Of a DNA stretch of 64,000 bases, positions 27,730 through 31,502 are shown in pieces. The first letter of the stretch is position 1. Each line of letters starts with the position of its first letter. The notes beneath the pieces were generated by a model, which was given only the letters and a program-made list of their open reading frames with translations, did no database searches and was not told the origin of the DNA. The translations under genes were made by a program, and so were the position numbers. The DNA comes from Patescibacteria group bacterium (lineage in GTDB: Bacteria; Patescibacteriota; Minisyncoccia; Phycocordibacterales; Phycocordibacteraceae). The stretch covers positions 65,133 to 129,132 of the forward strand of contig JAGWVF010000002.1 of the NCBI GenBank assembly GCA_018971045.1, read 5' to 3'.

Positions 27730-29394
27730 TTACGGCATCGTCTCTGCCATATCGCGTTTGATATCCTCGAAAGTTCCTCCGACTTTTTTACCCGGATTCA
27801 GAATTTCCTGCGGATCGAATATTGTCTTCGTCTTCTTGAAGAGCGCGATCATCTCGTCGCCAAAGAGCATCGGGAGATACGGCGTGCGGATAATGCCGTC
27901 GTTATGTTCGCCGGTAGTGGTACCGCCCTCCTTGATGACGAGCTCGTACACCTTCGGGGCGAGATCGAGGATCACTTGGCGGTTATCTTCTTTCGTAAGG
28001 TCCATGAGCGGAATGATGTGGAAATTGCCGTTGCCGATATGGCCCGCGATCGTGTAGATAAAGTGCTTAGAATATTCGGCGAGAAGCGCGTTCAGCTTCG
28101 GCAAGAATTCCGGATAGCTCTCCGGCGGGACGACGAAGTCGTCGATAAAGGGCGCGGTGTGCAGTCCGCGGACGTTCTTGCGCAAGAGATTGAAGCTCTC
28201 GCGGCGAATAATCCAATACTTCTCCGATTCTTTTTCATTCTTTTCGATCTTCATCTCCAAATGCATGTCGGCTAAAGTCTCTTTCGCCGCCTGCGCTTTC
28301 ATATCGGCTTCTTCGATCGTGTCTTCGGCAAATTCGGCCATGAGGATCATTTTCGGAACGCCGCCCGTCGCTACCAGCGCCGCTTCGGGGATGAGGTCGA
28401 TGCCGAGTTTTGCGGCGCGCACGAACCCCATTTGCGCGAGCATTTGGGGCATGAACTTTACGGCAAGGGTGAAGGTGTTGTCGTCATAGGATTCAAACGA
28501 CTCAGGATGCTGAGGGAGAACCCGCTTCACGATCTCGGGTAACGGCGCGATGTCGTAGAGGAAAACGACCAGCATCGCGCGGTGTTCCTTCGGCTTGACC
28601 AGCGCGAGCTTCGCACTGGTCCAGAGCGCGAGCGTGCCTTGCGAGCCGCAGATAAGCTTCGCGAGATTGAAGGTGCCGTTCTTCGGATCTTTGATATCCC
28701 AGAGGCCGTAGCCGGCGGAATTTTTTGACACTTTCGGCCGCTTCGCTTCGATAAGAGCGGCGTTCTTCTCGAGGAGCGCGTCCATCTCGCGGTAGATTTC
28801 GCCCTCAAGGTTCTGAAGTTTTTTCTTCTCTTCAAGCTCGGCGGCGGTGAGCGGCTTGAAGCGGGCTGATGAGCCGTCAGAAAGGACGACATCCATCTCT
28901 TCGATATAGCGCTCGGTCTTACCGTATTCGAGGGTGCGTTCGCCGCCCGAGTTGTTGGAGACGATGCCGCCCATGGCGGCGATCTCGCGGCTCGCCGGAT
29001 AGGAGGGAAGGACGAGCCCTTTCTCGAGCGTCGCCTTCTCAAAGTCGCGGTAATAGACGCCCGGCTCAGTCGTCGCCCAACCGTCTCCGACTTCGCCCAT
29101 ATGGTTCATATGCTTGGTGAACGATACAACGACTCCGGTAGTCAAAGGGCCGCCCGACATATCGGTTCCGGCGGATCGAGCAGTAAGCGATACGGACTCG
29201 CCCTCCGCCTTCCTGCGGGCAATCTCCTTCACGATCGCGCTTACGTCGTTTGCATCCTTAGGAAAGACCACGAGTTCGGGCATCCGTTCGAAAAGCGACG
29301 TGTCGCGGCTGTTCGCCTTCAGGGTTTCCGCATCATCCGCCACCTCGCCCCGTATCGTCTCCGCAATCGACTTCTTCAATTCTTCAGTATTCAT
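27730..29394 (-). CDS. FAD-linked oxidase (GlcD / D-lactate dehydrogenase family)
   Basis: 554 aa. FAD-binding PCMH domain (GAGTDMSGG-type motif SAGTDMSGGPL) and a C-terminal FAD-oxidase_C domain. Confidence 0.8.
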   Translation of the reverse strand: MNTEELKKSIAETIRGEVADDAETLKANSRDTSLFERMPELVVFPKDANDVSAIVKEIARRKAEGESVSLTARSAGTDMSGGPLTTGVVVSFTKHMNHMGEVGDGWATTEPGVYYRDFEKATLEKGLVLPSYPASREIAAMGGIVSNNSGGERTLEYGKTERYIEEMDVVLSDGSSARFKPLTAAELEEKKKLQNLEGEIYREMDALLEKNAALIEAKRPKVSKNSAGYGLWDIKDPKNGTFNLAKLICGSQGTLALWTSAKLALVKPKEHRAMLVVFLYDIAPLPEIVKRVLPQHPESFESYDDNTFTLAVKFMPQMLAQMGFVRAAKLGIDLIPEAALVATGGVPKMILMAEFAEDTIEEADMKAQAAKETLADMHLEMKIEKNEKESEKYWIIRRESFNLLRKNVRGLHTAPFIDDFVVPPESYPEFLPKLNALLAEYSKHFIYTIAGHIGNGNFHIIPLMDLTKEDNRQVILDLAPKVYELVIKEGGTTTGEHNDGIIRTPYLPMLFGDEMIALFKKTKTIFDPQEILNPGKKVGGTFEDIKRDMAETMP

Positions 29395-29490
29395 ATCTGA
29401 ATAGTATACCCGCAGTACGGCGTTTTTGTCCCATGTTCAACCGCTATGCTGATGGGGAAAGTACTCTCCAGCCGGTTCATTATAATTGGG

Positions 29491-29519
29491 TTGACAAATA
29501 TGTATAGCCGTGTATACTG
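29491..29519 (+). promoter_or_regulatory. consensus sigma-70 promoter TTGACA - 17 nt - TATACT
   Basis: Exact -35 consensus at 29491-29496 and near-consensus -10 at 29514-29519. No protein ORF follows on this strand. Confidence 0.65.
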
Positions 29520-29525
29520 AATATG

Positions 29526-29790
29526 CTTGTTCGGTTCGGGTCATACCCCGTTCGCCTCTCTCGAGCAGAGGTAGAAGTCATAACCCCAGCAAGCGCCGTA
29601 TCGGCGAGAGCTGCAACCGCCGGTACGTACCTCGGGTGTTCCTCGAGCGCAGCCGCCACTACCTAGCCGTGGACGATACTGTAGCGGAAGGGTGAGAGCG
29701 ATGGGATGCTAGGCGCCCGGGGATTGGTCCCCAAAACAAATCGCTCTCACCCGCAGGGCCCCGTTTCGACGGCGGCCCTTTTTTATTTCT
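29526..29790 (+). ncRNA. candidate structured ncRNA (~265 nt) of unidentified family
   Basis: Bounded by the consensus promoter and an intrinsic terminator (GGGCCCCG..CGGCGGCCC + T6 at 29756-29788). Contains a perfect 13-bp helix GGGTGAGAGCGAT/ATCGCTCTCACCC and several shorter helices. No coding potential on this strand. Confidence 0.5.
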
Positions 29791-30664
29791 CCATTTTATA
29801 GTGGTTGCGAGTTGTCGATTTTTCCAACTCGGAACGAGTCAGTTTTCGGATCCAAGCCTTTTGACGGCGGGCGTATTGCCAGAGCTTCGCGGAGAGGGTC
29901 GGGAACAGCGACGCTTCATCGCGCTCGCCGCGCAGATACTCGCCCACGATTTTGTATTCAAGGCCAAATTCATTCAGACGCTCGTCTCCCGTTCGTTCAC
30001 GAACCCGGCGAACTTCGTCAATGAGGCCGTGCGCAAGCGCGCTCGCGAGGCGCGCGTCAATCCGAGCGCGCAGCTCTTCGCGGGGCGGATCGAGGATAAT
30101 CCACTCGGCATTATAGGGCGGCATAATCCGCGTTCGTTCCGGAACCGATCCTCTATCCGCAATGATCTCGAGCGCGCGGATAATCCGGCGGCGGTTCTGC
30201 GGATCGAGATCGGCGGCGCGGCGCCCGTCTAAGGAGACGATGCGAGCGTACAATTCTTCAGTCGGCACGTCTTTAAGGCTTTCGCGAAAGGCGGGATCCG
30301 TCTTGACGCCCGGCAGTCCCGACAGAAGCGCGTCAAAATAGAAGTGAGTTCCGCCGGCGAGGATCGGCCGTTTCCCGCGAGCCGCGATCTCGATGATGAG
30401 ATTCGCCGCATCGGCGGCGAAGTCGCCCGCTGAGTAAGTCTCTTCCGGATCGCGGATATCGATCAGATGGTGGGGGATGCCGAGCATCTCTTCGGGAGAA
30501 ATCTTCTCGGTCCCGATATCGAGCCCGCGATACACTTGGCGCGAGTCGACCGATATGATTTCTCCCCCGCGCTCGAGAGCCTCGCGTATCGCGCGCGCCG
30601 ATTTACCCGAGGCCGTTGGCCCCGCGATGCAGATAATATGCGGAGGTTGTGCCTTGCCGGACAT
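29783..30664 (-). CDS. miaA: tRNA dimethylallyltransferase MiaA
   Basis: P-loop IAGPTASGKS at the trimmed start (MSGKAQPPHIICIAGPTASGKS). Conserved DSRQVYRGLDIGT motif. Confidence 0.9.
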   Translation of the reverse strand: MSGKAQPPHIICIAGPTASGKSARAIREALERGGEIISVDSRQVYRGLDIGTEKISPEEMLGIPHHLIDIRDPEETYSAGDFAADAANLIIEIAARGKRPILAGGTHFYFDALLSGLPGVKTDPAFRESLKDVPTEELYARIVSLDGRRAADLDPQNRRRIIRALEIIADRGSVPERTRIMPPYNAEWIILDPPREELRARIDARLASALAHGLIDEVRRVRERTGDERLNEFGLEYKIVGEYLRGERDEASLFPTLSAKLWQYARRQKAWIRKLTRSELEKSTTRNHYKMEK

Positions 30665-30716: not shown

Positions 30717-31376
30717 ATGAAAGAAACCAAGAGCAATTATTGCGAGAACTGCGGCGAATTCCACGACGCGGTGCGCGACTACCTCTCGCAAGTGAAGGTC
30801 GGCGAGACGGTGCCCGATTTCGAATTCGAAGCATTCCATCAAGGAGAGATTAAGCTCATGAGCCTTTCGAAGTTGCGCGGAAAATGGACCGTCCTCGTCT
30901 TCTATCCGGCCGACTTCACCTTCGTCTGCCCGACCGAGCTCGAGGAGCTCGCGAAGCTGTATCCCAAATTCCAGGCGCAGAACGCGGAGATTATTTCGAT
31001 TTCTTCCGATACCGTATTCACCCACAAAGCATGGCACGAAGTTTCGCCGGGGATTAAAGAGATTAAATATCCCATGGCGGCCGATCCCTCGAGCAAGCTC
31101 GCGTATGCCTTCGGCGTACTCGTTGAAGGCGGAGAAGCGGCGTTCACTCCCGATGAGGGATTGGCTTTACGGGGAACGTTTATTATCGATCCGAACGGTA
31201 TACTTCGTTCGATGGAGATAACCGATAACTCAATCGGCAGGAAGGGCGCGGAAACATTACGGAAGCTCCAGGCGGCGCAGTACGTAGAAACGCACAAAGG
31301 CAAGGTCTGTCCGGCCTCGTGGGAGCCGGGAGAAGATCCGCTCGAACCGGGTCTCGATCTCGTCGGAAAGCTGTAA
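30717..31376 (+). CDS. 2-Cys peroxiredoxin (AhpC/Prx1 family) with short Cys-containing N-terminal extension
   Basis: Peroxidatic-Cys motif FTFVCPTE and a resolving Cys in GKVCPASW. N-terminal CENCGEFH extension. Confidence 0.85.
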   Translation: MKETKSNYCENCGEFHDAVRDYLSQVKVGETVPDFEFEAFHQGEIKLMSLSKLRGKWTVLVFYPADFTFVCPTELEELAKLYPKFQAQNAEIISISSDTVFTHKAWHEVSPGIKEIKYPMAADPSSKLAYAFGVLVEGGEAAFTPDEGLALRGTFIIDPNGILRSMEITDNSIGRKGAETLRKLQAAQYVETHKGKVCPASWEPGEDPLEPGLDLVGKL

Positions 31377-31420
31377 ATAGAGAAATCAACGGTGCGCTAC
31401 GAGAAAGCACATCATACGTG

Positions 31421-31502
31421 TGCTGGAGGTGGGAATCGAACCCACAACCCTTGCGGGACGGGATTTTGAGGCCCGCGCGTATACCTATTCCGCCACTCCA
31501 GC
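31421..31502 (-). tRNA. tRNA-Leu (anticodon CAA), type II with long variable arm
   Basis: Reverse complement GCTGGAGTGGCGGAATAGGTATACGCGCGGGCCTCAAAATCCCGTCCCGCAAGGGTTGTGGGTTCGATTCCCACCTCCAGCA. Anticodon loop CUCAAAA; T-arm GTGGGTTCGATTCCCAC; variable arm CCCGCAAGGG. Confidence 0.85.

Follow-up and report, generated by a model that had tools for sequence, protein, structure and literature searches.

The large structured RNAs of bacteria whose function is unassigned, such as raiA, OLE, ROOL and GOLLD, are familiar from Rfam and from the work of Breaker and Weinberg. 6S and Ms1 are abundant structured RNAs that bind RNA polymerase. The cobalamin riboswitch contains a kissing loop between L5 and L13, and the lysine riboswitch one between L2 and L3. 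The candidate phyla radiation (CPR), or Patescibacteria, makes up a large share of bacterial diversity and has tiny genomes; to our knowledge, almost nothing is known about its non-coding RNAs. The locus described here is a predicted RNA gene at positions 29491-29790 of a 64,000-nucleotide (nt) stretch of contig JAGWVF010000002.1 (assembly GCA_018971045.1, Patescibacteria group bacterium). That whole stretch is called the window.

The locus probably encodes, as a gene standing on its own, a stable and highly structured non-coding RNA (about 260-300 nt) whose family lies outside Rfam 15 and occurs in several Candidatus Kaiserbacteria (Patescibacteria/CPR) lineages. The RNA is not the leader of a particular gene; it is read as a stand-alone transcript because in two of its four copies no gene follows on the same strand. 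The real support for this reading is the conservation of the whole unit in other species, beyond folding energy or a terminator alone.

Homologues and Shared Architecture

The loci of miaA in 80 species representatives, with flanks to 3 kb of the gene, were searched for relatives of the RNA, and three homologues besides the window copy are present in species-level metagenome-assembled genomes (MAGs). The L015 copy (Hainich groundwater MAG, the same genome as L087) matches by nhmmer at E = 9.5e-10 and is the only one that blastn and nhmmer found in the 80 loci. The L029 copy (MAG GFS_9566) matches the single-sequence covariance model R1 at E = 5e-9; R1 misaligned its 5′ half, and the true 5′ end lies about 100 nt upstream of the end of that alignment. 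The L008 copy (MAG S40-23), missed by nhmmer and by R1 even with filters off, was located through its promoter and 5′ motif and then confirmed by reading the sequence. Six short-read assemblies (L081-L085 and L088) belong to the same strain as the window and are uninformative for covariation because their RNA is identical to that of the window.

The four distinct copies share one order of elements, while the peripheral hairpins vary. From 5′ to 3′, the common architecture comprises a 5′ domain, variable hairpins, hairpin H6, a purine-rich linker, the long helix H7 with its inner hairpin H7a, and a terminator. All four begin with GCUUGUU, have an H6 loop that pairs with the 10-nt loop of H7a inside a helix of the form GGGYGAGAR/YUCUCRYCC, and end in the terminator.

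Covariation and the Kissing-Loop Contact

The original prediction made conservation and covariation in related genomes the test of a structured RNA, and homologues with compensatory changes do exist. Alignment A5, whose four rows were made by hand with N-padding and fitted to the structure, contains 37 pairs and 134 cells that are 100% paired, with 13 pairs changed on both sides, counts that the hand fitting inflates. These two-sided changes affect four of the seven pairs of H6, three of the 13 of H7, three of the four of H7a, and three of the six in the loop-loop helix. None of 500 shuffles reaches any of five measures, and the paired fraction in slid controls is 39-48% of cells. RNAalifold, run on an unsupervised MAFFT alignment of three sequences, recovers H7 with compensatory changes, an H6-type hairpin, and the terminator.

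In every copy, the loops of H6 and H7a match as complements over 6-7 nt. The H6 and H7a partners are CCUAGC and GCUAGG in the window and in L008, CUCUGGC and GCCAGAG in L015, and CCUGGA and UCUAGG, with one U-G pair, in L029. Loop shuffles that preserve composition give per-sequence probabilities of 0.006-0.085. The covarying loops point to a kissing-loop tertiary contact that would lock the 3′ half of the RNA into a compact fold.

Elements of the Predicted Fold

All elements lie on the + strand. The 5′ domain (29525-29594) is closed by helix P1, in which GCUUGUU (29525-29531) pairs with AGCAAGC (29588-29594). P1 has seven pairs, is 100% paired in the four sequences, and takes the general form GCUUGUU/A(N)CAAGC. 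Within the domain, hairpin D1 (29551-29576) has the stem GCCUCU/AGAGGU and the pyrimidine-rich loop CUCGAGC, whose core CUCGAG is self-complementary. The corresponding loops are UCUCCCGGUACAG in L008, UUUCUCCGGUACAG in L029, and CCCGGUGU in L015, each with a CCGG core on direct reading of the sequences. A self-complementary D1 core in all four copies, either CUCGAG or CCGG, hints at a capacity for dimerization that such loops would allow. In L008, the D1 pyrimidine run is predicted to form a second pseudoknot with the purine linker; this pairing was dropped, as it is not alignable consistently across the four sequences.

Between the 5′ domain and H6 stand one to four variable hairpins, depending on the copy. 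In the window, the first is H4 (29597-29627), with a 10-bp stem and the loop AGAGCUGCAAC. The loop motif AGCUG occurs on different stems in three of the four copies, namely the window, L029 (AUAGCUGCUUA), and L015 (UUGAGCUGUGUAG). H4 resembles domain V of group II introns, an identity rejected since the resemblance is not conserved in the homologues and has no Rfam match. The small variable hairpin H5 (29631-29647, CUCGGG/CCUCGAG) has small hairpins at its position in L015 and L029 and none in L008.

H6 (29656-29672) consists of the stem CCAC/GUGG and the loop UACCUAGCC, which contains the first kissing partner, CCUAGC, at 29662-29667. The long helix H7 (29690-29752) pairs GGGTGAGAGCGAT (29690-29702) with ATCGCTCTCACCC (29740-29752) over 13 bp and has the consensus GGGYGAGAR.../...YUCUCRYCC. 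The perfect 13-bp helix of the original prediction is present and encloses a three-way junction with two small hairpins. The first of these, H7a (29703-29718), has a GGG/CCC stem and the loop AUGCUAGGCG, which is 10 nt long in every copy and carries the second kissing partner, GCUAGG, at 29708-29713. The second, H7b with the AAAACAA junction (29719-29739, GGGGA-UUGG-UCCCC), is a variable insertion found in the window and L015 and absent from L029 and L008.

The Transcription Unit and Its Strand

The promoter lies on the + strand, with the −35 hexamer TTGACA at 29491-29496, preceded by a run of G, and the −10 hexamer TATACT at 29513-29518, with GTG directly upstream. Both hexamers are as first described; the spacer between them, given earlier as 17 nt, is 16 nt. 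The promoter matches the sigma-70 consensus at 11 of 12 positions and is the best of four promoter-like sites in 2.5 kb, where 0.9 are expected. The −35 hexamer is TTGACA in the homologues too, with GTGACA in L029, and each of them likewise has the run of G before it. Around the −10 hexamer, GTGTATACT is common to the window, L008, and L015, and L029 carries GTGTACAAT. Across the four copies, the hexamers are kept while the spacer varies from 16 to 18 nt and has diverged in sequence. Hexamers conserved beside a diverging spacer are the signature of a working promoter. GCUUGUU begins 6-8 nt past the −10 hexamer in all four copies.

The intrinsic terminator (29756-29784, + strand) is an 8-bp G+C stem, GGGCCCCG/CGG(C)GGCCC at 29756-29778, followed by T6 at 29779-29784. 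It agrees with the first description save for one bulged C in the stem. L015, L029, and L008 each have a G+C hairpin with a U-run at this position, and their stem sequences are unrelated. Terminator-like sites are not above expectation (2 found, 2.5 expected). A sigma-70 unit with an intrinsic terminator is kept in the orthologues and is present in all four copies. Judging by this geometry, the primary transcript is predicted to span 29523-29785 on the + strand, with its 5′ end, we infer, 5-8 nt past the −10 hexamer and its 3′ end in the T-tract. A unit bracketed by promoter and terminator stands as originally proposed, at a length of about 262 nt.

The + strand sequence has a minimum free energy z-score of −2.78, with none of 200 shuffles folding as well, and the z-scores of the four copies are −2.8, −4.9, −3.5, and −2.5. 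The − strand of the window copy folds equally well (z = −3.42), so folding energy alone does not give the strand. The RNA is assigned to the + strand because of the conserved promoter, the U-run that follows the terminator hairpin on the + strand and not on the − strand, and seven G-U cells of alignment A5 that would become A-C mismatches on the opposite strand.

Downstream Genes and a Possible Cis Role

In the window, the RNA is followed by the 3′ end of miaA, which runs convergently. The gene that follows the RNA in L008 is kinase-like and also convergent, and a tRNA-Trp gene lies just upstream of the RNA there. L015 and L029 each have an open reading frame (ORF) on the same strand within about 60-100 nt of the terminator. 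Taken with a complex fold containing a kissing loop, as in the cobalamin and lysine riboswitches, and a terminator that lies 3-7 nt past H7, these ORFs would suit a + strand cis leader, that is, a riboswitch or attenuator whose terminator controls the downstream gene and of which the window copy is an orphan that has lost its gene. Such a leader is nevertheless unlikely. The two ORFs are unrelated, encoding an 89-aa protein without a Pfam match in L015 and a Sigma70_r4 protein in L029. On direct reading, the L029 ORF has a promoter-like sequence of its own, TTGACG..TATAAA, between the terminator and its start. The window and L008 copies are each followed by a convergent gene. Finally, no obvious anti-terminator pairing with the terminator stem is apparent, and no riboswitch family matches.

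Tests Against Known RNA Families

At the gathering threshold, Rfam 15 identifies only two tRNAs in the 64-kb window and only tRNAs in 149 kb of related loci. The Rfam check proposed for the RNA returns only noise at E <= 10 over 29350-29900 and at E <= 5 over the L008, L015, and L029 loci, giving no match for the RNA or its homologues. ARAGORN reports tRNA-Leu and tRNA-Gln in the window and no tmRNA. The Rfam models of raiA, OLE, ROOL, GOLLD, and HEARO do not match either.

The original prediction favored a long-form signal recognition particle (SRP) RNA or a 6S RNA as the likeliest identity, on the ground that both were still missing from the window. That argument carries no weight, as the window covers 64 kb of a roughly 1-Mb genome. 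The identification itself does not hold. The RNA has no Rfam match to either at E <= 10, and its 5′ end pairs locally: in each of the four sequences, the partner of the 5′ end is position ~70, not the 3′ end. The conserved fold strings hairpins together and has a kissing loop, in place of a rod with a central bubble or a GNRA-capped helix 8. Neither SRP RNA model (RF00169, small; RF01854, large) matches, and SRP helix 8, with its GGAA cap, GNAR tetraloop, and GGAAGCAGC-type motif, is absent from the four sequences on direct reading. The 6S model (RF00013) gives no match, and both the minimum free energy and the comparative structures are multi-hairpin, with no rod containing a central bubble.

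Among 35 complete CPR genomes, ten carried RNase P RNAs that scored under the Rfam thresholds and had helices missing (PMC8172020). Because CPR RNase P RNAs often fall below these thresholds, P4 and other core features were read by eye. The P4 core (GGAAAGUCC ... ACAGAA-CCGGCUUA), including the sequences AAAGUCC and ACAGAA..GGCUUA, is absent from the four sequences on direct reading. RF00010 and RF00011 give no match, even sub-threshold, at the window locus (E <= 10) or in the homologues (E <= 5). For tmRNA, there is no Rfam match and, on direct reading, no T-arm or CCA end in the four sequences. A tmRNA-like tag ORF starting from GCAGCC was considered and dropped, as it is not conserved.

The precedent of RNase P RNAs that escape Rfam raises the alternative that this RNA is a very divergent universal RNA (RNase P, SRP, 6S, or tmRNA) that the Rfam models do not score. 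The spread of its carriers over Kaiserbacteria lineages suits a housekeeping RNA, and a size of 260-300 nt would also be normal for a reduced RNase P RNA or a long SRP RNA. Against these points stand the empty Rfam and ARAGORN results, the locally paired 5′ end, the absence of P4, SRP helix 8, and a T-arm or CCA end, and the chain of hairpins, which together make this alternative very unlikely.

The cobalamin riboswitch models (RF00174 and related) give no match, and no gene lies downstream on the strand of the RNA in the window or in L008. GCCACTA is present in the RNA, as first noted. GCCAC is not a conserved B12 box, because it forms the 5′ strand of the covarying H6 stem and the homologues have CAUCCAC, CCCCA, or CCUGU in its place. 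The assignment to no known family accordingly holds: the RNA belongs to no Rfam family, lacks tmRNA features, and is not a cobalamin riboswitch. No account of an RNA of this kind in Patescibacteria turned up in full-text literature searches.

Distribution

Further searches for members of the family returned nothing new. A hidden Markov model of the four sequences found no further copies, and a descriptor that looked for a terminator behind a long helix gave none either. Five more miaA neighborhoods (P0095, P0027, P0099, and P0006 with 10-kb flanks and P0001 with 3-kb flanks) contain no new distinct copy, and two pattern scans of viral contigs gave chance matches only. A metagenome scan with CGATGGG..GTCCCCAAAACNAATCG, a stretch that proved to be the variable H7b insertion of the window and L015 only, returned L087 and L086 only.

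The match in L086, a GC-rich contig, reads CGATGGG..GGGGATGCGTCCCCAAAACGAATCG at 1595-1634 and lies divergently upstream of a FAD-binding (BBE-type) oxidase, mirroring the arrangement in the window. It lacks the outer helix and the 10-nt H7a loop of the family, and the contig ends 36 nt later; the match is probably due to chance.

The four carriers are not each other's closest relatives by miaA identity among the 80 species representatives, so the RNA is either old in the group or mobile.

Genomic Context

The RNA locus occupies the gap at 29395-29782 between two genes on the − strand, a FAD-linked oxidase (27730-29394; Pfam FAD_binding_4 and FAD-oxidase_C) and miaA (29783-30664). The identity of miaA given in the original prediction is confirmed by a match to Pfam IPPT at E = 6e-64. 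In data with one genome per GTDB species, its closest relatives are from Candidatus Kaiserbacteria, Paceibacterota, and Patescibacteria MAGs, at no more than 76% identity. The window accordingly comes from an uncultured CPR bacterium, and its genome is assigned to Candidatus Kaiserbacteria.

The claim that the span has no ORF on its strand is literally incorrect, as the mechanical ORF list contains a 47-aa ATG ORF (29523-29666) and a 61-aa GTG ORF (29510-29695) on the + strand. Neither is a credible gene, because their start codons are absent from all three homologues. The absence of the AUG of the 47-aa ORF from the homologues also means that the copies have no coding potential in common, and a small protein as the product was rejected on this basis. 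A replication origin, suggested by the nearby parB, was rejected as well, since the region is G+C-rich and no DnaA-box-like repeats were seen.

A second promoter-like site, TATACA-16-TATAAT, matches the consensus at 10 of 12 positions on the − strand (29506-29479), back to back with the RNA promoter. It is placed to drive the oxidase (start at 29394) with a leader of about 80 nt, and the divergent promoters of the RNA and the oxidase may compete.

The oxidase and miaA are co-directional, with one on each side of the RNA region. This arrangement, the folding energy of the − strand, which is at least as good as that of the + strand, and the short sub-motif upstream of another FAD-binding oxidase in L086 are each compatible with an element of the − strand, either a structured 5′ leader of the oxidase or a cluster of hairpins that ends miaA transcription. 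Such an element is highly improbable. L015, L029, and L008 have no oxidase downstream of the element, and the − strand promoter-like site sits between the structured region and the oxidase. The G-U cells, the U-run, and the conserved promoter fit the + strand only, and the L086 motif is without the outer helix and the 10-nt loop and most likely arose by chance.

The T-tract of the terminator overlaps the miaA stop codon (29783-29785, − strand), as originally reported. This convergent arrangement, together with the location of all four copies within 2 kb of miaA, would be expected of an antisense or transcription-interference device against miaA. However, the antisense adjacency holds in the window and not as a general feature of the other copies. 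An unrelated ORF stands between the RNA and miaA in L015 and L029, and the L008 copy lies 1.9 kb downstream of miaA, on the same strand as miaA and after tRNA-Trp. Of the 80 relatives, 76 have no copy beside miaA. Because only the DNA around miaA was searched, the seeming association with that gene reflects ascertainment. A device directed at miaA is therefore hardly credible at all.

The wider neighborhood is partly conserved. The gene order ParB, tRNA-Leu(CAA), peroxiredoxin, miaA is kept in the window (30717-31376 and 31420-31502), L015, L029, L238, and L248-L251, and the peroxiredoxin next to miaA has an N-terminal extension that starts MKETKSNYCE(N/H)CGEFHD. The L088 contig (2404 nt, from almost the same strain) differs from the window at 25 positions. 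All 25 fall in a 412-nt stretch inside miaA (29846-30257), with none in the RNA, the oxidase, or the remainder of miaA, and this cluster looks like a recombination patch.

Proposed Role

The RNA may act in trans as a folded particle, most probably as a protein-binding or scaffold RNA, and a role of this kind would be preferred over a short-seed antisense regulator. A folded particle is suggested because selection acts on helices and a tertiary contact and not on one exposed linear stretch. The gene is likely important: an RNA gene of about 260-300 nt is costly in a roughly 1-Mb genome, its promoter is near consensus, and its tertiary contact is kept by compensatory mutations.

Several points weigh against reading the locus as a stand-alone gene of a new RNA family. 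The family has only four distinct sequences, and 76 of the 80 species representatives lack it within 3 kb of miaA, so that it may be rare rather than widespread. The pair counts are inflated by hand fitting, as stated with alignment A5. The window and L008 have an identical kissing-loop sequence, and the changes in P1 are one-sided (U-A/U-G only), which makes them compatible with pairing and leaves that helix unproven by covariation. The same-strand ORF downstream of two of the four copies leaves room for a cis role. The trans-acting protein-binding or scaffold role, in turn, is one that we infer.

A broader combined proposal is that the RNA is a lineage-wide housekeeping RNA of Kaiserbacteria, and possibly of the wider Paceibacteria, carried by most genomes but not at a fixed locus, locked by the kissing loop, and assembled through its D1 core (CUCGAG/CCGG) into homo-dimers or higher-order RNA or ribonucleoprotein particles. 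This combination is doubtful. If it were true, the RNA would represent a CPR-specific class of functional RNA without a counterpart in cultivated bacteria.

Other Structured Segments in Related Genomes

A tRNA-Trp(CCA) gene lies 1-2.5 kb downstream from miaA at most miaA loci. At many of these loci, the tRNA is followed by a G+C-rich, conserved, structured segment of about 110-250 nt (L238, 12058-12330), which is also present in L002, L016, L019, L021, L022, L031, L040, L045-L047, L050, L052, L059, L060, and others. At least three sequence types of this segment share GTCAGCAGAC(A/G)AAAC, and the segment often ends in a repeat of the tRNA-Trp 3′ end (CCTGGTGGGCC). On the opposite strand of the L238 segment, the ends pair (GGCCCA/UGGGCC), and a bidirectional terminator is shared with the tRNA. 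The segment has no Rfam match and is absent from the window. It could be left over from an integrated element or represent a further RNA gene that is unannotated.

The block TTGAACCAYTTACG-GGGG stands directly upstream of the −35 hexamer of the RNA promoters of L008 (5640-5690) and L015 (4552-4575, − strand) and of a methyltransferase promoter in L238 (12330-12395), and it also occurs downstream of tRNA-Trp in L070. In L008, L238, and L070, it extends to GGTTGTATTTACTGG..CACACGGAATCGAACTCT, the complement of which reads like the remnant of a tRNA T-arm. The block may be the remnant of an att site or serve as an UP-like element.

Beside tRNA-Leu in L015 (1341-1400, − strand), a 13-bp hairpin, GCAGG, and a terminator hairpin resemble the 3′ module of the RNA (H7, GCAGG, terminator), with an R1 E-value of 6e-5. 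Joining such a hairpin to a terminator hairpin may be a common way of building terminators in these genomes.

Relationship to Known Systems

The significance of the family depends on its range. If it is widespread, it would be a new class among the few large structured bacterial RNAs of unassigned function. If it proves restricted to a small number of lineages, it is a further lineage-specific small RNA, of modest interest.

The divergent CPR RNase P RNAs (PMC8172020) come from the same organism group, are of similarly reduced size, and score poorly in Rfam. In contrast to them, this RNA has no P4 core, no P1 joining its ends, and no sub-threshold match to RF00010 or RF00011. With the cobalamin and lysine riboswitches it shares a loop-loop contact of 6-7 bp that appears to organize the fold, and the GCCACU of the window resembles a B12 box. 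It differs from them in having no Rfam match, in the replacement of GCCAC in the homologues, and in the lack of a consistent downstream gene.

The likeness to 6S and Ms1 lies in a size near that of Ms1, a strong consensus promoter, independent transcription (predicted here), and scattered phylogenetic occurrence. Unlike those RNAs, this one has no rod with a central bubble, no pairing between its 5′ and 3′ ends, and no RF00013 match.

Like raiA, OLE, ROOL, and GOLLD, the RNA comes from a separate gene that has a promoter and a terminator of its own, reaches at least 200-300 nt, and contains many conserved helices and long-range tertiary or pseudoknot contacts. The resemblance extends to variable neighbors, as in L008, where the RNA directly follows a tRNA gene, and to an unassigned function. 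It is set apart from these RNAs by the absence of an Rfam match at E <= 10, its occurrence in a different phylum (Patescibacteria/CPR), and a different order of helices, and it is much smaller than OLE, ROOL, and GOLLD. By analogy, the RNA resembles raiA, 6S, and Ms1 in kind only and would stand alongside these families rather than within any of them.

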